Below, one piece after another: positions 107 through 36,319 of a stretch of DNA of 43,532 nucleotides. A model generated the notes under the pieces. It was not told where the DNA came from. It saw only the letters and a program-made list of their open reading frames with translations, and made no database searches. A program made the position numbers and the translations under genes. This DNA is from an uncultured Candidatus Peribacteria bacterium (GTDB lineage: Bacteria > Patescibacteriota > Gracilibacteria > UBA1369 > UBA12470). Each line of letters begins with the position of its first letter. Position 1 is the stretch's first letter. Location of the stretch: assembly GCA_964603905.1 (NCBI GenBank), contig CAZRWH010000006.1, positions 3,224-46,755 on the forward strand, read 5' to 3'.

Positions 107-141
107 CCATCTGCCATCTGCCATTTGCTATTTGCCATCTA
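107..141. repeat. heptamer tandem array: CCATCTG x2, CCATTTG, CTATTTG, CCATCTA
   Basis: Five phase-locked 7-nt units read directly. The array overlaps the stop codon (139-141) of the M16 peptidase gene. Confidence 0.85.
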
Positions 142-1374
142 AACCTCCACATTCCCAATCACCGCAACTCTAAGATTCTCAGGTGCCAGCAGCTTCTCCG
201 CAACTCGACGAACATCTTGCGCTGTAACAGCCTCAATCCCCTCCAAAACAGCATCAACATCACGAATTTCTCCATAAAGAAGCTCGTATTTTGCAAGTAA
301 ATGAGCCATTTCTTCACTATCTTCTAATTTCAAAATAATCTTGCCCTTCATATAAGCTTTTGCCTTTTCAAGCTCCTTTTCTGGCACATCTTCAGTACGA
401 ATCTTCTCGTATTCCGCTTTGATCGCATCAACCGCCTCAGAGACACGTTTTGCATCAACCCCAGCTCCTGTTGAGAGGGTTCCACAATCGGTATAATTGT
501 CTGTCGACGTCCTAATATAATAACAAAGCCCGCGCTCCTCACGCACCGACATAAACATTCGAGAACTCATATTTCCTCCAAGAATCACAGAAAGCACTTT
601 CTCCGCATAGCTATCCTCGTGCATTTCAGGAACACCACGAACACCAACGACAAGATGAACTTGTTCTGTCTTCTTTTTGTGGATTTTCTTGGTGTTTTTG
701 GCCAAATCTGGATCAAAAGGATTGTACTCCAAGCTCTGCTTCGCTTCTCCAAATTTAAACTTCTCCTCAACCAATCTCACCGCATCCTCGTGCTCAATAT
801 TTCCAACAACCGCAACTACACAATTGTCCGCTGTGTATAGCGCCTCTTTATATTTTTTAAAGTCCTCATGCGTCACATTTTTGATAAGCTCCTTGGTTCC
901 AATTTGATCCCACCCCATAGGCTGATCTCCGAAAACAAGCTGCTCAAAATCCCAACCAATTTGGTACATCGGCGTATCTTGATACATGTTGTACTCCTCA
1001 AGAATCACACCTCTCTCTTTTTCGATCTCTTTTGAATCAAATTTTGCATTCAGCATCATATCCGAAAGAACATCCGCAGCAACTTCAGCTTTTTCAGAGG
1101 CAACTTTTACAAAATATCCCGCATACTCCTTACCTGTAAAAGCGTTAAAAACACCTCCAACACCATCAATAGCCTCAGAAACCTCACGCGCATTTTTGTA
1201 AGTGTCAGCACCCTTGAAGAACATATGCTCCAAAAAGTGTGAAATACCTCTAAGTTCTTGGTTTTCATAACGACTTCCGGCACCACAAAGCACCAAAATC
1301 GTAACCGCTTTTGTGCCTTCCATTTTCCCCGTTACAACTCGCAGACCACTTTCCAATTGTGTTTTTTTATACAT
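139..1374 (-). CDS. M16 (pitrilysin/insulinase) family zinc metallopeptidase
   Basis: HFLEH (HxxEH) zinc motif near the N-terminus and typical M16 length. The ATG at 1374 (MYKKTQLESGLRVV) is preferred; the ORF track extends to a GTG at 1404. Confidence 0.85.
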   Translation of the reverse strand: MYKKTQLESGLRVVTGKMEGTKAVTILVLCGAGSRYENQELRGISHFLEHMFFKGADTYKNAREVSEAIDGVGGVFNAFTGKEYAGYFVKVASEKAEVAADVLSDMMLNAKFDSKEIEKERGVILEEYNMYQDTPMYQIGWDFEQLVFGDQPMGWDQIGTKELIKNVTHEDFKKYKEALYTADNCVVAVVGNIEHEDAVRLVEEKFKFGEAKQSLEYNPFDPDLAKNTKKIHKKKTEQVHLVVGVRGVPEMHEDSYAEKVLSVILGGNMSSRMFMSVREERGLCYYIRTSTDNYTDCGTLSTGAGVDAKRVSEAVDAIKAEYEKIRTEDVPEKELEKAKAYMKGKIILKLEDSEEMAHLLAKYELLYGEIRDVDAVLEGIEAVTAQDVRRVAEKLLAPENLRVAVIGNVEV

Positions 1375-1431
1375 AAAATTTGTTTTTAAATTTGCAAAAA
1401 ACACCTTAGCAGAAAAACCTAATAGAAACTA

Positions 1432-4020
1432 TTACATCTCGGCGAGAATATCTTTGGCTATAGCAGTCCAGGCACTAATAACATCAGCCCTACTTAAACC
1501 AGCGCCTTCAAGCACCTTAAGTCCATCCGCAGAAAGAATTTGTTTATCTTTATCAGCAAAGCAAACACCCTCATCCGAACAACGAATCTTCTCGCTCAGA
1601 GCATTTTGCAGGCCATCTTTTCCAAGCTCAACCATGCCAGGAATCACCTCCCTTGCTAAAGTTGCCTGCTGAAGAGGTGTAAGTCTGCCCAGCCTACCAT
1701 CATTTGCATATTCATAAGATAGTCCCAAAACATTTGTACTTCTCAAATTAGGCAATTTAGCCAGAGCTGAAATACCTTCAACTCCATGTTGTTCAATACG
1801 CTTACAATTAGAAATTCTAATAGTCTCTAGCGTAGGAGACATTTCCAACCCTTTTATACTTCTCAAATCATCAATTCCAACAAAAACAACCTCTTTTATA
1901 TTAGGAAAAGCAAACACTCTAGGTTCAGAATTAAGATTTCCAACTTTAAAAAACCTCAAATAAGTAATCTTTTCAGCGAACTCAGGATTGCCAGACAGGC
2001 TTTTGTATAGAAGATGATATTGCTCATTCGAATTAATACTCAATCCAATACCCTCTGCAGAAATTTCAATCTGCATAGGATCCAAAACCTCCCGAAGTTC
2101 TTCAGGTAAAGACTCATGAATTTCCTCCTGCTGTACCGTGATAGCATCCTTACCAGTATCTCCAGGCACCTCTTCCACTTCAGGCTCTTCTGTCGGCGGC
2201 CTCATCGGAAGCGGAGGAACTGGAGGTGGAACTGGCGTAGGTGCTGGAGTTGGCTCAGGAGCCGGTGCAGGCTCAGGAATCCCTTTGGCTTCACGCCATG
2301 CTTTATTGAGGTCATCAATCAAACTTTCTTGCGTCACATCATCACCAAATCTTTCCTGAATATCTCCTTTACGAACAACAGACTCAACTCTTTTCCAGCT
2401 TTTCTTAAACACAACACCTTTATTGCTACCAAACGTTAAAACCCCAAATGGCTCATCATAATACGAAGTTTCTTTAGATGAAAACTCTTGGATTGTATCT
2501 GTAACAAAACGCAATCTAGCAGCTTGATGTTCAGCATTCTCTCGAAGAGATAATTTTTGAACTTCTTCCCTCCATTTAGAATTCATAGCCTCTTCTATCT
2601 TCTTACCATGATCCAAATCCGAAAACTTCCTAAGTTCATCATCACTGCCCCAGTCAGCAAATCTAAGCCATCCATCTTCTAAATCTAGCTTGAAAGGAGC
2701 TTTCTCATGACCTTTCTCAACATCATTTTGCTCAATATTAGCCAAATATTTAGTAACTGTACTTCCAATAAACAACCTTTCTTGATGCGAGAATCCACTC
2801 AAATCAGCCTGTTCAACCTCGCCACTAATTTTCCTAAGCTTGTCTTCTGGTTCTCCATCACCAAAATCCAAATCATTATACCCAAGAAGAGAATACAAAT
2901 ATTTCTTATTCTTAGAACCTACTCGCCTAGCCGCTCCTTTCGCAGGATCATATGGAGCATCCGCAACTCTTGTAAAAGTATTTTTCTTCCTGTTAAACCT
3001 CCAACCATATTGAATAAACAAACCTTCATGCTCTAAAGAACCATCTGCCATTTCAGTAAACTTTTGATCAATCAAAATTTTCCTATTTAGTGCATCACGA
3101 ACCGTAAGTTCTTGCCCTTCAATATATTCAAGATTCCATTTAGAAGCTCCTTCAGGAGTAGTTATCCAGCTGCTTTTATACTCCTCTTTGACATTCCCAT
3201 CAGCATCCGCAATTCCAACCGCAATAGCTTTTTCTTTTGAAATCGTAGAACCAATCGGCAAATTCTTAGCACCTTCAAGATCTTCAATATCAGCATCCAT
3301 AACAGGTGCAAGAACCTCGCCACCAAAACTTTCCCCAGGCTGGTCAGAAACATGCCAACCACCACCTTGAGTCGTATCCAAAGAATTATACCAATCCAAA
3401 GAGCTCGCATATTCACGCGAAAGCTGATCCCAATTTTGGGCAACAGCTCCAAGGTCAAAAACCTCTTCAGGATAAATAAAATTCGGATCCTTATCCGCAC
3501 CACGCGCATCATTAATCATCTTGATAATCGCAAAAGTAAGCTTAGGTTGTTCAACCCAACTCAGATTAAATTCTCTACAAACAATCATCGAAAGCGTATC
3601 CCCAGCTTGCACAGTGTATTTACCAAGACCAGTAGGCGCAGCAGGCAACTGGCCAGGTGTAGCCGAAGGCGCAGAACCAGGAGCACTACCAGAAAGCTGA
3701 CTCCTCAAAGAGTTAAGCTTTTGTGTAAGTTCAGTAGCCTTAGCCTCAACATTTTCTTTTGTAAATTCTTCCAAAATCACCAAAATCTCACCCCTCATCT
3801 GTCCAGCCAAAGCGGCGTCAACACCATCCAAGTTTTCACTCAGGAACGTATTTAACTCTTGAAATTGAGCAGTAGTCATCTTAACCGCATCATCAATCTT
3901 AACCTCTTGATTCACGCTTTCATCAAGACTATCAACATCATTCAACTTAACCAAAACCTCTTCTTCGCTCACGTTAGGAACATCTGCCCCTCCACCAACG
4001 CCCATTCCTTGAGTACTCAT
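1432..4020 (-). CDS. large hypothetical protein (862 aa) with a LysM-like segment, Pro-rich spacer and C-terminal Cys-containing LRR-like domain
   Basis: Hydrophilic N-terminus with no signal peptide. YTVQAGDTLSMI...IYPEEVFDL is LysM-like (nt ~3451-3621). PEPAPAPEPTPAPTPVPPPVPPLP lies at nt ~2169-2280. ITYLRFFKVGNL / IKEVVFVGIDDLRSIKGL / LETIRISNCKRI lie at nt ~1696-2133. Confidence 0.8.
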   Translation of the reverse strand: MSTQGMGVGGGADVPNVSEEEVLVKLNDVDSLDESVNQEVKIDDAVKMTTAQFQELNTFLSENLDGVDAALAGQMRGEILVILEEFTKENVEAKATELTQKLNSLRSQLSGSAPGSAPSATPGQLPAAPTGLGKYTVQAGDTLSMIVCREFNLSWVEQPKLTFAIIKMINDARGADKDPNFIYPEEVFDLGAVAQNWDQLSREYASSLDWYNSLDTTQGGGWHVSDQPGESFGGEVLAPVMDADIEDLEGAKNLPIGSTISKEKAIAVGIADADGNVKEEYKSSWITTPEGASKWNLEYIEGQELTVRDALNRKILIDQKFTEMADGSLEHEGLFIQYGWRFNRKKNTFTRVADAPYDPAKGAARRVGSKNKKYLYSLLGYNDLDFGDGEPEDKLRKISGEVEQADLSGFSHQERLFIGSTVTKYLANIEQNDVEKGHEKAPFKLDLEDGWLRFADWGSDDELRKFSDLDHGKKIEEAMNSKWREEVQKLSLRENAEHQAARLRFVTDTIQEFSSKETSYYDEPFGVLTFGSNKGVVFKKSWKRVESVVRKGDIQERFGDDVTQESLIDDLNKAWREAKGIPEPAPAPEPTPAPTPVPPPVPPLPMRPPTEEPEVEEVPGDTGKDAITVQQEEIHESLPEELREVLDPMQIEISAEGIGLSINSNEQYHLLYKSLSGNPEFAEKITYLRFFKVGNLNSEPRVFAFPNIKEVVFVGIDDLRSIKGLEMSPTLETIRISNCKRIEQHGVEGISALAKLPNLRSTNVLGLSYEYANDGRLGRLTPLQQATLAREVIPGMVELGKDGLQNALSEKIRCSDEGVCFADKDKQILSADGLKVLEGAGLSRADVISAWTAIAKDILAEM

Positions 4021-4036
4021 ATTTGAAAAAATTAAA

Positions 4037-4363
4037 TTATATATTTTTAAGTTCTTCCTCTAGCTGTTCCTCAGCCGCAGCAACATCTTTTGCTTGCGAC
4101 GCATCCGCAACACCTTTCTGAGCTTGCGATTTAAAACTCTTAACTTCTGAAGCCAATTTTTCTGCCAATTTTGGATCTTTTTCAAAAGCTTCTTTCAACA
4201 TTTTTTCGAGATCCGCTTGGTTTTGACTCAAAATTTCGATCAGTTTTTCGACATCTTTTTCTTCCATAAAAAACACCATCGCCTCCCACTCCTTTTTCTG
4301 CTCAACAGATAGGAATAAGTTCGATTTGATCAACGTAGCCGCTTTGTTTTTTATTTCTGTCAT
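4037..4363 (-). CDS. small acidic helical hypothetical protein (108 aa)
   Basis: ATG start 27 nt downstream of a consensus -10 box. Its stop is 16 nt upstream of the 862-aa gene. Composition is rich in charged residues (coiled-coil-like). Confidence 0.6.
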   Translation of the reverse strand: MTEIKNKAATLIKSNLFLSVEQKKEWEAMVFFMEEKDVEKLIEILSQNQADLEKMLKEAFEKDPKLAEKLASEVKSFKSQAQKGVADASQAKDVAAAEEQLEEELKNI

Positions 4364-4390
4364 CTATTATTTATTAACTATTATCTAATA

Positions 4391-4419
4391 ATTATACCAC
4401 TTTTACTCAATTTTTTCAA
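4391..4419 (-). promoter_or_regulatory. sigma70-type promoter, TTGAAA-N17-TGgTATAAT
   Basis: The reverse complement of 4391-4419 is TTGAAAaaattgagtaaaagtggTATAAT, with an extended -10 TG. Confidence 0.6.
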
Positions 4420-4422
4420 CCC

Positions 4423-4451
4423 TGTACAACCTTCTAAACGTCAACTACAAT
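4423..4451 (+). promoter_or_regulatory. possible promoter of the PBP gene, TGTACA-N17-TACAAT
   Basis: Good -10 box, weak -35 box, 17-nt spacer. Confidence 0.35.
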
Positions 4452-4467
4452 CCAAAGCACAAGACCG

Positions 4468-4488
4468 GCGACTTGCGACCCGCGACTA
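4468..4488. repeat. heptamer array GCGACTT GCGACCC GCGACTA in the PBP 5' leader
   Basis: Three phase-locked GCGACNN units ending 10 nt before the ATG at 4499. Confidence 0.6.
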
Positions 4489-4498
4489 ACACAAGCAA

Positions 4499-6730
4499 AT
4501 GAGAACCAACAACCGCCTAAACATAGTAATCATCATCGTTTTTTTGGTGACAGGAATCATAGGCCTACGACTATTCTGGCTACAGGTTGTATCTCACGGA
4601 CATTACAAAGAAATCGCTCAAAAAGAACACCAAGGCTACACCGAACTTCCGGCACGACGAGGTGAAATCCTAATCACAGACTACAATTCTGGCGAAGTTT
4701 TCAAACTAGCAACAAACACAACACTAGACCTCCTTTACGCCGATCCATACCTGATTGAAGACCCTGGAATGGTCGCAGAAACACTCGCGCCATTGCTTTT
4801 TAATCTAGAACAAGAAAAAGAGCTAGACGAAGAACGCGTCAAAGAAGAACTTGAAGAAGCATACGAAATCGAAAACGAAGAAATCCGGGAAGATGTATTA
4901 AAAACCATCTCATACAAAGACGACGGAGAACTTTTCGACGACTATCAAGACCGTTTAGAAGACCAATTAAGTGAAAAAATCCGCTCACAAATCCTTCTTG
5001 CCGAAGAGATGGACCAAGAAACAATCGACGCCCTCGTTACAGCCGATATAACAGGAGTGCTAGTAACTGAGCACGGAGATGTTTACGCATTCCCAAATGA
5101 AATCAGCAGCAAAAAAAGAACTGCAGAAGAACTAGCAGAAATATTCAAAGTAGACGCCGAAAACCTCGAAAGCATCCTAGAGGGAACCAACCGGTACACA
5201 GTACTCGACCGAAAACTTGACCCATCAGTGTCATCTGCAATCGATCAAATAATCGAAGAGGACGAAACAGGAGACTTCCTCGGAATACGAATGCTCGAAG
5301 AATATTACAGATACTATCCTGAAGAAGAGCTAGCGTCACAAATCCTTGGATACGTTAATTCCGCAGGTGTCGGACAGTATGGAATCGAAGGATTTTTCAA
5401 CTCATCACTAACCGGAAAAAAAGGTTACTTCACCTCGCAAATTGACGGTGTAGGAAAACAAATCACAGTAGGAGAAAGTGTTATCGAACCCGCAGAAGAC
5501 GGAGCAAATATCATGCTAACAATCGACAGAACAGTCCAACTCGAAGTCGAAAAACTTGTCGGAGCCGCAGTCGAAAGCTACCAAGCAGAAAGTGGGCAAG
5601 CCATCGTAATTGACCCCGAAACCGGCGCAATCATCGCAATGGCAAACTATCCAACATTCGACCCAAACCTTTACGGCCAAGTATATAACCTCCAAGAAAT
5701 CGAACTAACCGAAGAAGAGTGGGAACGCGTTTACAACATGGGAGATGAAGAAGATCCAGTCTGGTGGTTTTATACACAAATCGATCCCGACGAAAGAGTC
5801 AGAATCTTCCAAGACAGCGACGACCCTGAAACATGGTATTCATACGAAAACATGTACGGACCAGAGGTTTACAAAAACAAAACAATCCAAGCTATCTACG
5901 AGCCGGGATCAGTATTCAAACCAGTGGCAATGGCATCTGCGATAAACGCAAACGAAGTGACTCCAAATTCAACACACAATTGCACAGGACCACTCGAAGT
6001 TGACGAGTTCGAAATCCACACATTCGACGACACATACCACGGCATTGAAACAATGACAGAAGTACTAATCAATTCTTGCAACATCGGAATGGCATATGTC
6101 GCAGAACTTCTCGGCCGAAGCCTTTTTTACAGTTACATCCAAGCATTCGGATTTACAAAAAGAACAGACATACAACTGGACGGAGAAGAGTCAGGATACG
6201 TTGAATACTACGACGACTGGGCAAGATCAGAGCTGGTAACTCACGCCTTCGGACAAGGTATAACTGTAACACCGTTACAAATGGCTGTCGCTACAGCCGC
6301 ACTCGCAAACGACGGAGTTTTGATGCAACCATACATAGTCGAAAAAATAGAATACGCCGACGGATCTATCACAGAATACGAGCCTGAAATAATCAGACAA
6401 GCAGTCACAAAAGAGACAGCCGACCAAACAACAGCAATGCTAACAGCAGTCATCGAACAAGGAATTCCACAAGCACAAATAGACAATCATTACGTCGCAG
6501 GAAAATCAGGTACAGCCCAAACATACAAATGGGGAAAAGCACTTGAAGGAAAAGGTACAACAATCACATCATTCGTAGGATACGGCCCAATCGACGATCC
6601 ACAATTCGCAATTTTGGTTAAGTTCGACTATCCAAAAACAAACGAATGGGGAGCGAACACAGCAGGACCTGTCTTTGGGGATATAGCGGACTTCTTGTTT
6701 AGTTATTACAATATTCCGCCGGATAAGTAG
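4499..6730 (+). CDS. class B penicillin-binding protein (PBP2/FtsI-type peptidoglycan transpeptidase)
   Basis: N-terminal TM anchor. SVFK (SxxK, aa 471), SCN (SxN, aa 526) and KSGTA (KTG-type, aa 669) are in canonical order. Confidence 0.9.
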   Translation: MRTNNRLNIVIIIVFLVTGIIGLRLFWLQVVSHGHYKEIAQKEHQGYTELPARRGEILITDYNSGEVFKLATNTTLDLLYADPYLIEDPGMVAETLAPLLFNLEQEKELDEERVKEELEEAYEIENEEIREDVLKTISYKDDGELFDDYQDRLEDQLSEKIRSQILLAEEMDQETIDALVTADITGVLVTEHGDVYAFPNEISSKKRTAEELAEIFKVDAENLESILEGTNRYTVLDRKLDPSVSSAIDQIIEEDETGDFLGIRMLEEYYRYYPEEELASQILGYVNSAGVGQYGIEGFFNSSLTGKKGYFTSQIDGVGKQITVGESVIEPAEDGANIMLTIDRTVQLEVEKLVGAAVESYQAESGQAIVIDPETGAIIAMANYPTFDPNLYGQVYNLQEIELTEEEWERVYNMGDEEDPVWWFYTQIDPDERVRIFQDSDDPETWYSYENMYGPEVYKNKTIQAIYEPGSVFKPVAMASAINANEVTPNSTHNCTGPLEVDEFEIHTFDDTYHGIETMTEVLINSCNIGMAYVAELLGRSLFYSYIQAFGFTKRTDIQLDGEESGYVEYYDDWARSELVTHAFGQGITVTPLQMAVATAALANDGVLMQPYIVEKIEYADGSITEYEPEIIRQAVTKETADQTTAMLTAVIEQGIPQAQIDNHYVAGKSGTAQTYKWGKALEGKGTTITSFVGYGPIDDPQFAILVKFDYPKTNEWGANTAGPVFGDIADFLFSYYNIPPDK

Positions 6731-6753
6731 CGAGGACAGCGGTCCGAAGCAAA

Positions 6754-6773
6754 GACGATTCCGCGCAATCGTC
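6754..6773 (+). terminator. weak hairpin downstream of the PBP gene
   Basis: GACGATT / AATCGTC 7-bp stem with loop CCGCGC. There is no strong T-tract. Confidence 0.3.
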
Positions 6774-6874
6774 GGAGCGAAGGAGCATTTTCAAGAAATA
6801 AAGAGATTTTTTGAGATAGCAAACAAATCGAGTTATTTCACAGAAAATGAAGCTGGCCCCTATTGAAGATAAAT

Positions 6875-6902
6875 AGATGGCAGATGACAGATCATAGAGA
6901 CG
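6875..6902. repeat. heptamer array AGATGGC AGATGAC AGATCAT AGAGACG
   Basis: Four phase-locked units. This is the reverse complement of the CATCTGN family seen at 107 and 24941. Confidence 0.75.
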
Positions 6903-6915
6903 CTACATAAAGTTG

Positions 6916-6977
6916 AATTTTGGCGATAGGCGCGAGAACGTGTCTCGACTAGTGAAGAAGCCTATCGCCCAAAATTT
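6916..6977 (-). other. long imperfect hairpin 10 nt past the stop of the 853-aa gene, with the GTCTCGACTAG motif in its loop
   Basis: AATTTTGGCGATAGGC pairs with GCCTATCGC(C)CAAAATT (16 bp, 1-nt bulge). The 28-nt loop is gcgagaacgtGTCTCGACTAGtgaagaa. Confidence 0.6.
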
Positions 6978-6987
6978 CTTTCCCTAT

Positions 6988-9549
6988 CTATTCTGGAAGA
7001 GTCTCGTAAATCCCATTTGCACTCAACTCCGACGCAATCTTACGAAGAGAACTAATCTGATCTCTGTCTAATAATGCAGTGTCATGCTCCAATTGATTTA
7101 AAATACCCCTCTCTTCTTCTTTAGACTCAGCCTTGTCCAGCTTCTGCATATAAGCAATTACTTTTTTTATAACTGGAGAATCATGTTCCCACCCATTCCT
7201 CTGATATATCTCCTTTTTAGTCTCTTCAATCAACTCAGGAGCCACCTCCGCAACACGTCGAGCAATCTCGTCTGGACCAATTCCAGCAGAATCTTGCTCA
7301 CCCTCTTCCTCTTCCGCCTCTTCTTTCCAAAAATCACCTTCTCCCCTCAACATAGCACCAGTATCATCAGTCTCTCCTTCCGGCTGAACTTCTACAGCAA
7401 CTTCAACATTGCCATCTGAATCCATGCCAGCTCTATCCATAGTATAAGCAATGTCTTTCAATAAATCCTCGCTACTATCAAGATCAAACTTCACACAACG
7501 TTTTAACTGCTTCCTGTTAAGTTGATCCCCTGTAGAAAACCATACTTCACACCTTTTAGCACGAAGTAGTCCCTTTAGATCCTCAAAATCACACGAATCC
7601 ACGATAACCGTCTGGATACTATCAGGTAAAAAGTCCCAATTCTCGATAGTCCCTTGTATTTTGTGAATCCTCAAATAAAGCAAATTAGGGCATTGCTCAA
7701 CAACTTCCCGAACAACATCTTTATGACAATCTTCAAACACAAGACCGCCTACATTCTCTGCAACAGCAGCAATCTCTTCTATATCCTCTCTGAGTTTAAG
7801 GTGATACTTTAGATCCAGTCCACTGTCCCAAGTAATACCTTCCAACATCAATCTCTCACCCCCTCCAAGAAGCCCAAAGTTACGAAAATCAACACAATCC
7901 TGACCAAGAATTTCAACAAGCTCTTTCGGAATCTCTTTAAGTTCAGGAACTTTCAAAGCCATTGGAAGTGGCAATTTAGCCAAAATACGTTTGATAAGTC
8001 CTGGCTTATTAGGTTGAGTTAAATCTTTACGTCGATTCATCCAATTTCCAAAACGATCTCCGGTAATAATATCCAAAAGAACAGACATCGCACCTTTGAT
8101 TTCCTGAACAGGGTCTCCAGCACCACTAAACTGAGGCGCCGGCACCAAAGTTCTATCCGCTTGTTCAACGGGAACAACATGTTCAACCTCTCCAGAAACA
8201 TGCTCAGCATCAATTACTACAGGGTCAGCAGCAACTTCAGCCAGTTCAGGATCCGGCAAACCGGCAACAATTCTATCCAAAATATCAGGACGACTTGGAG
8301 AAACAGTATTTCTAGGCACAGCCCTTCTTTGAGGTGGCAATTCAAAAACCTGTTCAGCGCGTTCATCCGATTCAGAACCAGATGGATCTACCCTATACAA
8401 TGAAATAGGACTCGGGAACTCATGATCTGAAGCCTCTTCTAGATCACCTTCTGCAGGCGGAAAGAACACAGGTATATCAAACTCAGAGCTTGAAACCTCT
8501 TCTGCATCTTCGGTAGCAGGCCTCGCAGGAGGTGCCAGCACAGGAAACTCAGGCAATTCAACATCAAGTTGCAAAACCGCATTAATATCTCGAATCGCAC
8601 GAGCCGCCCTATAACGAACTTCTCGGGATTCACCTGACTTCTTTTCAGATTCTAGTCGCGCCAATTCTTGAGCTATAGCCTCTTTTGTATCCAAGCTAAG
8701 ACGAACTAGAACACCATAAATTTTACTAATTTTCGCCCTCTCAACACGCTCAATTTCATCCACATCAACTGCCTGACCATCAAGCAAATAAGTATCTTTT
8801 GCGACTCCAACATTAAACCTCAGTTCGCTCACAGCTTTCTCTTGATCAAAATGACTTTGAAGCAATCCATGTTGAAGCAATGTACACGATTGAGCCAATG
8901 CATGCAGCCCCATTTGAACCAAACTATCAGCGGCTGTGCGCTCCTCTTGAGTCATAACAGGGTCAGAACCATCCGACGGATTAACAGCCACATGATTCAT
9001 TAAGTTAAGATGAGCCAAACAATGAACAAGATCCTTAACTTGATCCCCTTTTCTCAATCGAAGAAGGTTCATAAGTAGATCTCGAGCCATTAATTGCGAT
9101 TGATAGAAGTCTTTGTTAGCCAAAACAGCTTTAGAAGCATCATCAGAAGCATTCATGCCCGTTGGCAAACCGTTGCAACCCTCAAACATATCCGCATTTT
9201 CGCGATAAACACTAGTAATAATAGTCATAAGCGCTTTATGAATCAGAGCAGCTTTTCTTTGCATTGGAATATCACGACTAGATTCACGAGCTACTGAAGG
9301 CACCAATGCAAAAGTAGGCATTGCAAACTGCCTTTTCAAGCTCTCATTCGCATCATAAACCTCTCCTCCAATAAGATGCACACCCGCATAAACGCTGCGC
9401 GATTCAGGAGTAGTAGAATCTTTTTCTTCTCGCTCAGCTTTAAAGAAACCCATGTATTCCAGAGCTTCGGCAAGCTCTCGGGTAATAGGGCCTCTTTCAT
9501 CCGTAGATTCAGGACCATTACCACCCATTGTTGAAATGCTTCTAGACAT
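6988..9549 (-). CDS. large hypothetical protein (853 aa) with Pro/acidic spacer and Cys-containing LRR-like region
   Basis: Hydrophilic N-terminus. The Pro/acidic region spans aa ~335-480 and includes SSEFDIP. CPNLLYLRIHKIQGTIENWDFLPDSIQTVIVDSCDFEDLKGLL lies at nt ~7540-7932. Confidence 0.8.
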   Translation of the reverse strand: MSRSISTMGGNGPESTDERGPITRELAEALEYMGFFKAEREEKDSTTPESRSVYAGVHLIGGEVYDANESLKRQFAMPTFALVPSVARESSRDIPMQRKAALIHKALMTIITSVYRENADMFEGCNGLPTGMNASDDASKAVLANKDFYQSQLMARDLLMNLLRLRKGDQVKDLVHCLAHLNLMNHVAVNPSDGSDPVMTQEERTAADSLVQMGLHALAQSCTLLQHGLLQSHFDQEKAVSELRFNVGVAKDTYLLDGQAVDVDEIERVERAKISKIYGVLVRLSLDTKEAIAQELARLESEKKSGESREVRYRAARAIRDINAVLQLDVELPEFPVLAPPARPATEDAEEVSSSEFDIPVFFPPAEGDLEEASDHEFPSPISLYRVDPSGSESDERAEQVFELPPQRRAVPRNTVSPSRPDILDRIVAGLPDPELAEVAADPVVIDAEHVSGEVEHVVPVEQADRTLVPAPQFSGAGDPVQEIKGAMSVLLDIITGDRFGNWMNRRKDLTQPNKPGLIKRILAKLPLPMALKVPELKEIPKELVEILGQDCVDFRNFGLLGGGERLMLEGITWDSGLDLKYHLKLREDIEEIAAVAENVGGLVFEDCHKDVVREVVEQCPNLLYLRIHKIQGTIENWDFLPDSIQTVIVDSCDFEDLKGLLRAKRCEVWFSTGDQLNRKQLKRCVKFDLDSSEDLLKDIAYTMDRAGMDSDGNVEVAVEVQPEGETDDTGAMLRGEGDFWKEEAEEEEGEQDSAGIGPDEIARRVAEVAPELIEETKKEIYQRNGWEHDSPVIKKVIAYMQKLDKAESKEEERGILNQLEHDTALLDRDQISSLRKIASELSANGIYETLPE

Positions 9550-9579: not shown

Positions 9580-9608
9580 ATTCTACACAGAAATCGTGCT
9601 TTTGTCAA
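9580..9608 (-). promoter_or_regulatory. sigma70-type promoter of the 853-aa gene, TTGACA-N17-TAGAAT
   Basis: The reverse complement of 9580-9608 is TTGACAaaagcacgatttctgtgTAGAAT. The -10 box lies 30 nt from the ATG. Confidence 0.65.
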
Positions 9609-9781: not shown

Positions 9782-9899
9782 CTTAGCTTTTTTTGTTAAG
9801 CGAAAAAGTATCAGCAGTGCTACTATTTTCTCCTGATCGTAAGATCAAGAGAAAGAGTAAGCGATGCCACGCAGGAGCTAAACAAAAAAATCCCCTAAG
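9782..9899. other. copy A of a repeated structured element: a long hairpin enclosing a ~58-nt conserved core
   Basis: Arms TTTTTTTGTTAAGC (9788-9801) and GCTAAACAAAAAAA (9877-9890), plus outer CTTAG/CTAAG. Core 9819-9877 is about 85% identical to 30514-30571. The right arm overlaps the stop codon of the 104-aa gene. Confidence 0.6.
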
Positions 9900-10209
9900 C
9901 AGTACCACTAAGATACAACTCCCTAAAATGCGCAAAAGCTTGAGCAAAAACCTGTTGATAATTTGGAAGATTCTCTCGAATATACTGCTCAACTTGTTCA
10001 GCACTCATGTCATCAGCCTCAATTCTCCCCTGGAAATCAGCTCTTTTATCCTCCGGCAAAGCCTCAAGAACAGAAAGCATCAATTTATCTTCAAGACGAA
10101 TATAAAGGTCTTGAATCATTTGTTCACGTTCAGCTTCAGGAAGCTCTGACATACCTGCCTCAACAAGTAATCCTTCAAGAAATTTCTTAATATTTGGATC
10201 CATTTCCAT
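9895..10209 (-). CDS. small acidic helical hypothetical protein (104 aa)
   Basis: ATG-initiated ORF 56 nt downstream of the giant gene stop, on the same strand. Confidence 0.6.
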   Translation of the reverse strand: MEMDPNIKKFLEGLLVEAGMSELPEAEREQMIQDLYIRLEDKLMLSVLEALPEDKRADFQGRIEADDMSAEQVEQYIRENLPNYQQVFAQAFAHFRELYLSGTA

Positions 10210-21811: not shown

Positions 21812-22030
21812 TTAATTAACAAAAGCCATCGCCCGTTGTTCGACATAAAGCGAGTTAAGAACAGGAGAATCCCCTGCAAACATCGCGAGCATATTAACCT
21901 CGTCTTCCTCCGTCTTGCATACGCTAAAAAACATCATCGCCGCATGGACATCTCGCCAGCTAATATCACCAGCTTGCATAGCCTTTCCAAAGGCCTGCTT
22001 AATCTTCTGCGATAGAGGTGTGTTTTTCAT
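21812..22030 (-). CDS. small hypothetical protein (72 aa) immediately upstream of the giant gene
   Basis: ATG start 28 nt downstream of a consensus -10 box. Its stop is 41 nt before the giant gene ATG. Confidence 0.55.
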   Translation of the reverse strand: MKNTPLSQKIKQAFGKAMQAGDISWRDVHAAMMFFSVCKTEEDEVNMLAMFAGDSPVLNSLYVEQRAMAFVN

Positions 22031-22058
22031 GGTATGAAATTCATCAAAATATCAAATA

Positions 22059-22087
22059 ATTATACCAGAAAAACGCCTCTTGATCAA
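22059..22087 (-). promoter_or_regulatory. sigma70-type promoter of the 72-aa / giant gene unit, TTGATC-N17-TGgTATAAT
   Basis: The reverse complement of 22059-22087 is TTGATCaagaggcgtttttctggTATAAT. Confidence 0.65.
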
Positions 22088-30480: not shown

Positions 30481-30587
30481 AGGTTTTAAATTAATTAAAC
30501 GAACATCTGCAACGCCACTATTTCATCCTGATCGTGAGATCAAGAGGAAGAGTAAGTGAAGCCGTTCGGAGAATTAATTTAAAACCT
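30481..30587. other. copy B of the repeated structured element: a 16-bp hairpin enclosing the conserved core
   Basis: AGGTTTTAAATTAATT (30481-30496) pairs perfectly with AATTAATTTAAAACCT (30572-30587). The core is 30514-30571. The right arm overlaps the stop codon of the ABC transporter gene. Confidence 0.65.
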
Positions 30588-32237
30588 AATAACTACATCG
30601 AACATATCAAGCAACGACAGACGATGCACAGAAGCAATAATCGTCTTGTCTTTGTATTTCCTGAATACGCCTTTTAGAATCGCCCGCTCATTTTCCATAT
30701 CAACGCTACTTGTAGGTTCGTCCATCAGAAGGATATCACTTTTCTCACCAGCAAGAAGTCCACGAGCAAGGGCAAGACGTTGCTTTTCCCCACCACTGAG
30801 ATTAACTCCTTTCTCGGCAATATTTGTTTCGAGTCCGGCAGGAAGACGCTTAAGAACAGATTTGAACCTAGCCAACCCCAGAACTTCTAAGATTTTTTTA
30901 CGAGGAATTTTAAGTCCCATTGAGACGTTGTATTCGATTGTATTTTCAAAAATTTCAGGCTCCTGAGGCATCAAAGTTGTCATGTTAGAAAGGTGCAAAA
31001 CACCGTGAGGCAGTTTTTTGCCATCAACATACAAATCACCTTTTGAGGCCTGAAAAATCCCACGCAAAAGTCCGAGAACCGTGCTTTTACCACAGCCACT
31101 TTCACCAACAAAAGCAATGCGTGCACCTCGAGGAATATCAAGTGAAAAATTCTTGATTTGATGCTTGATTTTCTTTTCATCTTCATAAGTAAAATATAGG
31201 CCTTCAACTCGAAGATTCTTCCATTTTTTAGGGGCACGTGCATTAACTTTGGCACCCATTTTGTCGTAATCCCGGAAGATGTTCTCGGCGGAAGCTACAG
31301 ATGCATCTTGCTCAACAATTTGACTGTATTTCCAAGCAAACTGATAGAAATTATGCCCAATCCTATCCATGTAAGCATAAAGCGTATACAAAGTACCAAT
31401 AACGATAACCTCGTCCGATTTCAAAGTACTAAAAATCTCCCAAGAAATAACACTGATAGACATAACCGTAATCCAGAAAGTCACACTAGCCCATTTGATC
31501 TCATTCACAATTGTTTTCTTCTTGAAAAGCTTGAAAGGAACATAGTGCCTTCTCATGGATTCCTTCACCGCAGCACTTTCAAAACGCATCGTCAAAACCG
31601 TTATTACATTCGACAAATAGTCATGAATCGCAGAAGCCGTTTTGTTGTACATTGAGTGAAGCCTCTTTGCGTATTTGAAGAGAACAATGTCGAACAAAAT
31701 AACAAAAGTAAAAGCCAAAGTTGCAGCAACAAGGACCGCAATACCGGCATAAGCTTTGATGAAGAATAGAAGAAAAAACGATCCAACAAGAGTCACAATG
31801 ATTTCAACAAGAACAAATATTTCCTCCGAAAAATCCATAAAAGCAAGGGCCGCACGATTCAATTTATCAATGTTTTTTCCAGAATGATTTCCACGATGCC
31901 ACTCAGCAGGAAGCCCAAAAAGAGCTTTCAATCCCGCCTCTCTATAATTCCCCATTACCCTATAAGCAAACACGCTTTCAAAAATTCTAGACACACCATG
32001 AAAAACCCAAAAAAGCACAGGCAAAGTACCAAGAATAATGAGCAGAAAAATAATTCTACGCCCCATATCTTCCCCACCAGTCTGCAGTACATCCAAAATC
32101 TTACCGAAAACATAAGGCTCAAAAAGAATAATTGTATTAGCAGTAATCGACAAAAACAGGAATAAAAACATGTTTTTTCTATGCCCCTGGGCATATTTCC
32201 ATGTATTCCTCAACATTGATGTAATTGGATTTCTCAT
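30579..32237 (-). CDS. ABC exporter, fused permease and ATPase (MsbA/type I exporter-like)
   Basis: N-terminal 6-TM region. Walker A is GESGCGKST, the ABC signature is LSGGEKQRLALARGL and Walker B is ILLMDEPTSSVD. The ATG at 32237 is preferred because the track's TTG at 32288 lies inside the -35 box. Confidence 0.9.
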   Translation of the reverse strand: MRNPITSMLRNTWKYAQGHRKNMFLFLFLSITANTIILFEPYVFGKILDVLQTGGEDMGRRIIFLLIILGTLPVLFWVFHGVSRIFESVFAYRVMGNYREAGLKALFGLPAEWHRGNHSGKNIDKLNRAALAFMDFSEEIFVLVEIIVTLVGSFFLLFFIKAYAGIAVLVAATLAFTFVILFDIVLFKYAKRLHSMYNKTASAIHDYLSNVITVLTMRFESAAVKESMRRHYVPFKLFKKKTIVNEIKWASVTFWITVMSISVISWEIFSTLKSDEVIVIGTLYTLYAYMDRIGHNFYQFAWKYSQIVEQDASVASAENIFRDYDKMGAKVNARAPKKWKNLRVEGLYFTYEDEKKIKHQIKNFSLDIPRGARIAFVGESGCGKSTVLGLLRGIFQASKGDLYVDGKKLPHGVLHLSNMTTLMPQEPEIFENTIEYNVSMGLKIPRKKILEVLGLARFKSVLKRLPAGLETNIAEKGVNLSGGEKQRLALARGLLAGEKSDILLMDEPTSSVDMENERAILKGVFRKYKDKTIIASVHRLSLLDMFDVVIRF

Positions 32238-32259
32238 ATTTGATATAATTCGAGAGAGG

Positions 32260-32288
32260 ATTATGCCACAAAACCACGCCCCAGGCAA
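32260..32288 (-). promoter_or_regulatory. sigma70-type promoter of the ABC exporter, TTGCCT-N17-TGgCATAAT
   Basis: The reverse complement of 32260-32288 is TTGCCTggggcgtggttttgtggCATAAT. Confidence 0.55.
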
Positions 32289-34838: not shown

Positions 34839-34913
34839 TGGAGCCATCACCGGGATTTGAACCCGGGACCCCTCCCTTACCATGGGAGTGCTCTACCACT
34901 GAGCTATGATGGC
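34839..34913 (-). tRNA. tRNA-Thr (anticodon GGU), CCA encoded
   Basis: Cloverleaf read by hand: GCCATCA-TA-GCTC-AGTGGTA-GAGC-A-CTCCC-ATGGTAA-GGGAG-GGGTC-CCGGG-TTCAAAT-CCCGG-TGATGGC-T-CCA. Confidence 0.92.
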
Positions 34914-35548: not shown

Positions 35549-36319
35549 ATGAAGAAAATTCTCATCCCAATACTAATCCTAGCCATCCTGGCCATACCAG
35601 CCACATACTTTGGCAAAAAAGTCATAAGAGACTATCAATACAGCGTCACGCATTCAACTTTAGAGCCAATCACCCTGGAAACAGAGCCTTCTGCAAATAA
35701 CAGTTTTCCTAAGGAAAACACCATAACTACAACCACCACTACTACTACCACTGAAGAAATCAATTTAAAAATTGATTTCTTCTCCCAGGCCCCATACGCC
35801 GACTGGTCAATGCCATACCAAGAAGCTTGTGAGGAAGCCAGCCTGATCCTCGCATACAATTTCGTCCAGGGGATCACGATGAACAAGGAGGAGTTCCACA
35901 TCGAACTTCTCAAGATGATAGATTGGGAGACCGCACATTTTGGCTCATACGAGCACACGACGGTTGATGAAACAGCTGAGATGCTTGATGATTTTTATGA
36001 TTTTCAAAACTACAAAATTCTCACAGATCCAAGCATCGACAACCTCAAAAACGAGCTAGCATCCGGAAATCCAATCGTTGCACCATTTGCAGGACGAGAG
36101 CTTGGGAACCCCAACTTTACAGGAGAAGGGCCGTACTACCACATGCTTGTAATCCGCGGATACGACGAAGAATATTTCATCACAAACGACGTTGGCACCC
36201 GCCTTGGCGAGAACTACCAATACACTCATGACGTACTAATGAACGCACTTCATGACTGGCACGATACCGATATTTCTACAGAAGGAGAGAAAAAAGTTTT
36301 AGTCCTCCTTGGATCCTAA
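35549..36319 (+). CDS. membrane-anchored C39-like (papain-fold) cysteine peptidase domain protein
   Basis: N-terminal TM helix and a T9 run. FFSQAPY...YQEACEEASLILAY is the candidate catalytic Cys. YHMLVIRGYDEEYFITNDVG holds the candidate His and Asn/Asp. Confidence 0.5.
   Translation: MKKILIPILILAILAIPATYFGKKVIRDYQYSVTHSTLEPITLETEPSANNSFPKENTITTTTTTTTTEEINLKIDFFSQAPYADWSMPYQEACEEASLILAYNFVQGITMNKEEFHIELLKMIDWETAHFGSYEHTTVDETAEMLDDFYDFQNYKILTDPSIDNLKNELASGNPIVAPFAGRELGNPNFTGEGPYYHMLVIRGYDEEYFITNDVGTRLGENYQYTHDVLMNALHDWHDTDISTEGEKKVLVLLGS

Follow-up and report, generated by a model that had tools for sequence, protein, structure and literature searches.

Attachment to host cells is the presumed way of life of Candidate Phyla Radiation (CPR) bacteria, and little has been established about how they display large binding proteins. 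Among the closest described systems are internalin-type surface proteins with leucine-rich repeats (LRRs) and surface proteins anchored through LysM, LRR and LysM being ordinary domain types. Another is provided by the substrates of type VII secretion, large proteins without a signal peptide whose genes directly follow one for a helical protein of approximately 100 residues (a WXG100 protein such as EsxA, or the Lap partner of an LXG protein). Additionally, giant, modular and fast-evolving proteins have been reported from CPR and other uncultured bacteria; they are encoded by very large open reading frames (ORFs) and contain low-complexity linkers, internal repeats, lineage-specific domains and terminal binding repeats. 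Here we analyze a 43,532-nucleotide stretch of DNA (the window) from an uncultured Candidatus Peribacteria bacterium (contig CAZRWH010000006.1, positions 3,224 to 46,755), in which the large ORFs resemble such giant modular proteins in these features. Three small genes, s108, s104 and s72, are named for products of 108, 104 and 72 aa, and three large proteins of 862, 853 and 3834 aa are termed p862, p853 and the giant, respectively.

A sequence-only reading of this region had proposed three paralogous cassettes, each composed of a small acidic chaperone or adaptor and a large LRR protein, with a common plan of spacer, module and LRR. Our best explanation, to which we give a probability of roughly 0.6, is that the three large proteins are unrelated, lineage-specific and fast-evolving, so that the three pairs are not copies of one cassette, and that p862 is an envelope-associated binding protein with s108 as its partner. 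Only s108/p862 among the three pairs is a conserved, uncharacterized gene pair, and we know of no described system to which a conserved small upstream partner family of this kind has been tied. What is new is the s108 family itself, its strict position ahead of large signal-less proteins with variable C-termini, and the accretion of a C-terminal LRR head in one lineage.

Members of the s108 family are helical, about 105-115 aa long, and carry the motif 'NLFLS..K..W' at the N-terminus; their C-terminal tail reads 'EE.L...LNNI'. No match to s108 was obtained from Pfam, NCBIfam, PADLOC or the Protein Data Bank (PDB), and a word-indexed homolog search returned one match; the same searches with p862 and p853 matched only themselves, low-complexity words having probably swamped the search. 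Relatives were collected by synteny with the neighboring class B penicillin-binding protein (PBP) gene as anchor, which gave 2 genome and 18 metagenome loci with 10-kb flanks that were annotated against the window proteins. A hidden Markov model (HMM) of the s108 family recovers members in loci L001 (two copies), L003, L005/6/7, L008, L013/L019, L022, L023 and L024/25/26. In all 10 of its occurrences on these related Peribacteria contigs, the s108-family gene is followed after 1-16 nt by a gene on the same strand whose product has at least 555 aa. A p862 relative and then an M16 peptidase gene follow it in eight contexts; the s108/p862 pair is present in L001, L003, L005-7, L008, L022, L023 and L024-26, with protein identity down to ~25-39%. 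The large gene is unrelated to p862 in two contexts, encoding 1858 aa in L001, behind a small gene (L1_114b) that the HMM recognizes at E 3e-6, and 2675 aa in L013/L019. In distant relatives with PBPs that are 50-58% identical, the M16 and PBP genes are adjacent and divergent with no insert; in a closer clade a small and a large gene are inserted between them.

Ratios of nonsynonymous to synonymous substitution (dN/dS) are 0.15 for s108 (versus L003) and 0.24 for the p862 N-terminus. The s108 gene is under purifying selection, as is s104 (dN/dS 0.05). Based on the synteny, these ratios and a promoter-like site ahead of s108 (Table 1), s108/p862 is a real and conserved unit that is probably translationally coupled. 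Given how tight and conserved the pairing is, a partner or chaperone role for s108 seems a reasonable proposition.

Two further observations concern proteins encoded beside s108-family genes. In the 1858-aa protein of L001 (3632-9208), a cluster of transmembrane (TM)-like segments occupies the center (aa ~703-738) and there is a region with an HD-like 'H...HD' motif; this protein is related neither to p862 nor to the giant. A short p862-family protein termed P0015 (387 aa; L024 4481-5644 / L026 6001-7164) contains two tandem N-terminal domains plus LysM, and its gene lies just upstream of the s108-like gene, so that this small gene is flanked by two p862-family members.

Proteins of the p862 family share a plan that begins with an N-terminal helical domain (N-domain) and a divergent LysM, continues through a middle part that varies, and leads to two or three 'APF' modules toward the C-terminus. 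An HMM of the N-domain, which spans ~130 aa, matches every family member at E values from 1e-6 to 1e-50 and finds it duplicated in P0015. Searches of Pfam, NCBIfam, PADLOC and the PDB assigned the N-domain to no known family, and an hhalign comparison with the s108 family was not significant. A canonical LysM (PF01476) has ~44 aa, a 'YxVkxGDTLxxIA' start, an 'N..i..GQ.L.iP'-type end and a score above the Pfam cut-off. For the p862 segment, the top matches in a PDB profile search are mostly LysM proteins (Ecp6, SafA, LytE, Kbp, autolysin, MltD and LytN) at E 0.06-1, and a whole-library search matched true multi-LysM proteins at E 2e-6 to 5e-4, values to which the Pro/Ala-rich flanks may have added.

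The region with the two APF modules (aa 413-579) aligns to aa 529-697 of the 702-aa relative P0016 and to aa 761-850 of the 852-aa relative L5_852. Because the relatives end where the Pro-rich stalk of p862 begins, aa 581-862 (stalk, LRRs and a helical tail) constitute a recent extension that is found in this genome only and is absent from every relative. LRRs are recognized as tandem repeats of 20-30 aa that have an LxxLxLxx(N/C)xL core and are significantly similar to bona fide LRR proteins. A HMMER search of p862 against 1.84 billion representative proteins matched genuine LRR proteins through aa 683-768, the best of them P0009 (E 5e-25, 12 stretches), and by Pfam the matches are NB-ARC/TIR and other LRR proteins. 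In a targeted comparison the region scored 164.8 bits against a maximum of 10.8 for shuffled sequences, with Pfam LRR_4 giving only E 0.15. We conclude that aa ~683-785 are real cysteine-containing LRRs, which bears out the LRR-like C-terminus that had been proposed for this protein. The p862-type LRR HMM has no match in any other fetched locus. Thus, with an LRR end confined to this genome, being a large LRR protein is not a property of the cassette.

As a separate matter, the LRR block finds its best whole-library match in a plant-type NB-ARC protein (35% identity, 12 stretches), the LRRs of which are RPS2-like. The similarity most likely stems from the regular cysteine-containing LRR consensus and not from gene transfer.

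The domain content of p862 invites comparison with internalin-type and LysM-anchored surface proteins. What it has in common with them is a LysM-like domain together with a Pro-rich stalk and a short run of LRRs; its LRR region matches LRR folds and the terminal LRRs of the giant match internalin A and other LRR structures. It differs from them in lacking a signal peptide, an LPXTG motif and GW modules, and in having LRRs of the cysteine-containing RPS2/FBXL-like type and not the 22-residue internalin type. Further differences are that its LysM is located near the N-terminus and falls below the Pfam threshold, and that the LRR block is absent from every relative. No TM-like segment is present in p862, and a Sec signal is absent in every p862-family member. 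This lack of a Sec signal together with the conserved hydrophilic helical N-terminus makes s108 most likely a dedicated partner, and p862 is most likely, judging by its domains, a wall-associated LysM/LRR binding protein. In the arrangement that we favor, p862 would be made without a Sec signal and yet become associated with the cell envelope, where LysM would anchor it on peptidoglycan and the Pro-rich stalk would cross the wall. The LRR head would then bind a partner, plausibly on a host cell, and s108 would bind the conserved N-domain as a chaperone, export adaptor or co-subunit.

Several points weigh against this putative assignment of localization and function. The Pfam LysM match is sub-threshold in p862 (E 0.056), as it is in three of four family members with a best E of 0.0024, and some LysM proteins, such as Kbp, are cytoplasmic. 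An AlphaFold2 model of the p862 LRRs, which like the model of p853 was made from a single sequence without an alignment, has strands every ~24 aa but an only moderate mean confidence (pLDDT 62), and its best Foldseek matches (tropomodulin, leiomodin, designed LRRs, NLRs and FBXL17) are weak at E 0.02-0.4. The large proteins behind two s108-family genes do not have the p862 N-domain (E 0.9 or no match), which weakens the case for a single specific interface between the N-domain and s108. Lastly, no secretion machinery was identified within the window.

Some of these points would suit an intracellular role, in which p862 and p853 are scaffold or regulatory proteins, the LysM-like segment has a function other than wall binding and s108 acts as a subunit or regulator translated along with its partner. 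Signal peptides and TM segments are lacking in both p862 and p853, which are highly acidic, and the LysM is sub-threshold with cytoplasmic Kbp among its matches. On the other hand, a Pro-rich stalk combined with LRR and LysM is typical of wall-associated binding proteins such as internalins and LysM autolysins, and the fast turnover of the C-termini is more typical of surface or interaction proteins. We consider an intracellular role unlikely.

An alternative that retains the surface location is that s108 and the p862 N-domain form a targeting unit for non-Sec export, with the variable C-termini (APF, LRR) as polymorphic cargo aimed at competitors or host cells. Such a unit would have its counterpart in the WXG100/Lap partners and LXG domains of type VII substrates. 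The likeness to type VII substrates consists of a helical protein of ~100 aa encoded directly upstream of a large signal-less protein, with the small gene in this upstream position in 10 of 10 cases, and of a conserved N-terminal helical domain followed by a variable C-terminus; it is one of analogy only. Signal peptides are also consistently absent from the family despite a LysM-like domain, which is usually extracellular. However, membership in the WXG100 and LXG-Lap systems calls for a match to a family HMM, a helical hairpin with WxG at its center and an EssC-type ATPase encoded nearby. Nine s108-family members gave no Pfam match to WXG100, LXG or Lap, and the residues behind their conserved Trp vary (WEA, WQA, WKS, WKG and WLK), with no WxG motif. 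The window proteins that were scanned against Pfam include no EssC/FtsK-type or other secretion ATPase, and we know of no type VII system in the CPR. Furthermore, the p862 N-domain is missing from some of the large proteins encoded behind s108-family genes. Polymorphic-cargo export of this type is therefore, in our estimation, about as improbable as an intracellular role. Even less probable, though the most novel, is that the s108 family and the N-domain make up a previously undescribed Sec-independent targeting or export module of Peribacteria that parallels the type VII partners but is evolutionarily unrelated to them. Were this true, the module would bring to the cell surface, for attachment to hosts, proteins that are anchored through LysM and have exchangeable heads (LRR, APF and others). 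For the present, the s108 family and its large signal-less LysM proteins, with C-termini that are swapped between genomes, represent a candidate partner or export system for surface proteins.

Table 1. Features of the analyzed window (positions count from the first nucleotide of the window)
Feature	Position	Strand	Remarks
M16 peptidase gene	139..1404	-	27 nt 3' of p862; kept as downstream neighbor of p862-family genes
p862, 862 aa, no signal peptide	1432..4020	-	begins 16 nt past s108 stop
p862 aa ~683-785, three to four cysteine-containing (RPS2-like) LRRs	1666..1974	-	HMMER, model, Foldseek
p862 aa 581-617, Pro-rich stalk (46% Pro)	2170..2280	-	start of genome-specific extension
p862 aa 413-579, two 'APF' modules	2284..2784	-	C-terminal end in all relatives
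p862 aa 129-213, divergent LysM-like domain (YTVQAGDTLSMIV...DKDPNFIYPEEV)	3382..3636	-	conserved across family
p862 aa 1-129, conserved N-terminal helical domain	3634..4020	-	HMM
s108, 108 aa, helical, mildly acidic (23 acidic/17 basic)	4037..4363	-	family alignment and HMM; first gene of operon
Promoter-like site ahead of s108	4391..4419	-	TTGAAA-17-TGnTATAAT (TG extension), 11/12 matches
Class B penicillin-binding protein (PBP)	4499-6730		housekeeping envelope gene
p853, 853 aa, no signal peptide	6988..9549	-	own transcription unit; unrelated to p862 or giant
p853 aa ~597-670, Cys-containing 'LRR-like' strands	7540..7761	-	LRR identity not established
p853 aa 335-480, acid-/Pro-rich linker with SSEFDIP (aa 354)	8110..8547	-	Pro, Asp, Glu, Ser enriched
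p853 aa 96-250, lineage-specific conserved domain	8800..9264	-	common to 526-aa (L005) and 573-aa (L008) proteins
Promoter-like site ahead of p853	9580..9608	-	TTGACA-17-TAGAAT, 11/12 matches, 30 nt 5' of ATG
s104, 104 aa, DUF5663, acidic (22/10)	9895..10209	-	56 nt past giant stop
giant, 3834 aa	10266..21770	-	central TM cluster aa 1018-1051, acidic linkers
s72, 72 aa, orphan, not acidic (8/7)	21812..22030	-	41 nt upstream of giant; TGGTATAAT element ahead

The proposal of three paralogous cassettes was accurate in part of its description of the genes. All six ORFs are on the minus strand, the ORFs and the peptides highlighted in them are located where the sequence-only reading had placed them, and the distances of 16, 41 and 345 nt between small and large genes are exact. 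The N-termini of p862 and p853 are indeed hydrophilic, with no hydrophobic N-terminus and maximal Kyte-Doolittle values over 19 aa of 0.88 and 0.89, and both proteins contain a Pro- or acid-rich spacer (15% Pro and 21% Asp plus Glu in that of p853; Table 1 for p862). A promoter had also been placed in the 345-nt gap, where we predict a strong sigma-70-like site, TTGACA-17-TAGAAT, at 9608-9580. In favor of a common plan, the large proteins all lack a signal peptide and have low-complexity linkers, a small ORF precedes each large gene on the same strand, LRRs terminate both p862 and the giant, and a short motif is common to the giant and p853.

Common descent of the cassettes, in contrast, did not survive comparison. 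An all-against-all BLASTP search of the six proteins revealed no significant similarity within either the large or the small set, the three large genes had no segment in common when compared as DNA, and phmmer found no relation among p862, p853, the giant and the large proteins L1_1858, L13_2675, L5_2019 and L8_1164. The segment resembling a giant-protein module that had been described in p862 and p853 is absent from both, because an HMM of the four giant modules recovers its own copies at E 1e-29 to 1e-43 and reaches only E 1.4 in p862 and 0.6 in p853 with negative domain scores. For the small proteins, hhalign gave E 0.14 between the s108 and s104 families (0.005 with richer profiles, over 28 columns only), 0.18-0.5 between the s108 family and s72, and 0.15-0.4 between the s104 family and s72. 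The s108-family HMM finds s104 at E 8.5 and does not match s72. Thus, as far as their sequences indicate, s108, s104 and s72 are not detectably related. The description of all three as acidic is correct for s104, holds mildly for s108 and fails for s72, which has no homologs either. The pairing fared similarly: that of s108 with p862 is conserved in related Peribacteria and s108-family genes never stand alone in our set, whereas s104 orthologs occur without p853 and s104 goes with the giant. Additionally, the p862 LRR is a genome-specific add-on, that of p853 is unsupported, and a promoter-like site separates s104 from p853. On this evidence we consider a family of three cassettes largely refuted and its truth highly improbable, and the claim should not be carried forward.

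The shared motif deserves separate mention. A pattern of the type SEF(D/N)(L/I)xP occurs in acidic linkers at aa 1794, 1855 and 2803 of the giant and at aa 354 of p853 (~8470-8490), which confirms its recurrence in p853 as SSEFDIP. No DNA similarity accompanies it, and none of the 26 related loci contains the motif. The pattern, which was devised after the fact, arises in 11 of 20000 p853 shuffles. The occurrences may represent a lineage-specific short linear motif, SE(F/I)(D/N)(L/I)xP, at which processing or binding takes place, or may be due to chance. We regard it as an unexplained curiosity that provides no evidence for a common origin of the giant and p853.

The p853 protein, in which no TM-like segment was detected, has a conserved domain near its N-terminus that is found by BLASTP in the 526-aa protein of L005 and the 573-aa protein of L008 (E 5e-8 and 1e-5, respectively). 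These relatives are weak, lie at other positions and have no s104-like neighbor; the domain has no credible family and no relative in the PDB. The LRR-like strands that had been proposed for its C-terminus have no Pfam or PDB sequence match. They score 6.6 bits against a shuffle maximum of 9.6, and 2.1 bits with the p862-type LRR HMM, a value reached by 1 of 100 shuffles. A model of the C-terminus has a pLDDT of 46, with the COI1 LRR as best Foldseek match at E 0.1, to which we attach little weight. The LRR-likeness of p853 is therefore unsupported.

The giant contains four tandem modules of ~100 aa (aa 1935-2425) that are not LRRs, as well as repeated acidic linkers. Its last ~90 structured residues (aa ~3640-3725) match PDB entry 4r58 at E 1.3e-4 and internalin A at E 1e-3, and score 14.3 bits with the p862-type LRR HMM, a score attained by 0 of 100 shuffles; Pfam LRR_4 yields only E 0.047. 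These similarities support terminal LRRs in the giant. Giant homologs in L022 (4698-8406, minus strand) and L002 (4048-11370) keep a TM-containing core corresponding to giant aa 891-1338 or 1631-1772, and their C-termini are wholly different, as with the HEAT-like repeats of L022 ('DRYADQSWAAEVIK'). The C-termini of the giant proteins turn over as does that of p862.

The s104 protein is a clear member of DUF5663 (PF18908), a known family of unknown function, with 50.9 bits against a cut-off of 23.7; s108 and s72 have no match to this family, for which no literature was retrieved. In L002 and L004 an s104 ortholog (61% identity) directly follows the giant homolog, next to PBP and with no p853 homolog present. 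L022 likewise has an 80%-identical s104 ortholog after a giant homolog that is 42% identical over giant aa 1631-1772. Since s104 orthologs follow giant homologs in the absence of p853, and since p853 has its own promoter-like site, s104 and p853 are not a pair; s104 belongs with the 3' end of the giant gene, as seen in three genomes. A separate observation is that a 611-aa DUF3352 protein of L013/L019 (17168-19003) resembles the DUF5663 proteins s104 and L2_105 over aa 434-526 (E 7e-5), which hints that DUF5663 may also occur as a fused domain.

The remaining small gene, s72, has no homolog in any fetched locus, where the contigs do not reach the 5' ends of the giant homologs, and no Pfam, NCBIfam, PADLOC or PDB family was assigned to it. 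Its codon usage is gene-like, with a log-likelihood ratio of 0.146 per codon versus a maximum of -0.02 for spurious ORFs. A near-identical extended -10-like element, TGGTATAATTATT, is present on the minus strand ahead of both s108 (~4387-4399) and s72 (~22054-22066), so both look like the first genes of transcription units. The site ahead of p853 is the best promoter-like site of the scanned region. The genes would accordingly be arranged in one unit with a promoter, s108, p862 and then probably M16; a second with p853 alone, which has its own promoter, a distinct conserved N-domain, the acid- and Pro-rich linker and a C-terminal region of undefined fold; and a third with s72, the giant and then s104.

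The six proteins of interest are singletons or near-singletons in a protein collection clustered at 90% identity. The nearest relatives of PBP in GTDB genomes are from an uncultured Candidatus Peribacteria metagenome-assembled genome (MAG; 82% identity) and a Patescibacteria MAG (78%). A toxin-immunity reading of the pairs was also considered and set aside, given that the small gene precedes the large one, that no toxin domain came to light and that PADLOC returned nothing. The region has a GC content of ~42%, and many of the remaining window ORFs have no Pfam match. In addition to the M16 peptidase and PBP genes, the housekeeping envelope genes in the window encode MurJ, an ABC exporter and an SLH protein. 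The ABC exporter gene (ABC_membrane plus ABC_tran; 30579-32288) is followed ~3 kb away by a separate gene for a C39-like peptidase (35549-36319), and together they possibly form a peptide export and processing system. Between the two lies a tRNA-Thr(GGT) at 34839-34913; a tRNA was the single RNA found in an Rfam scan.

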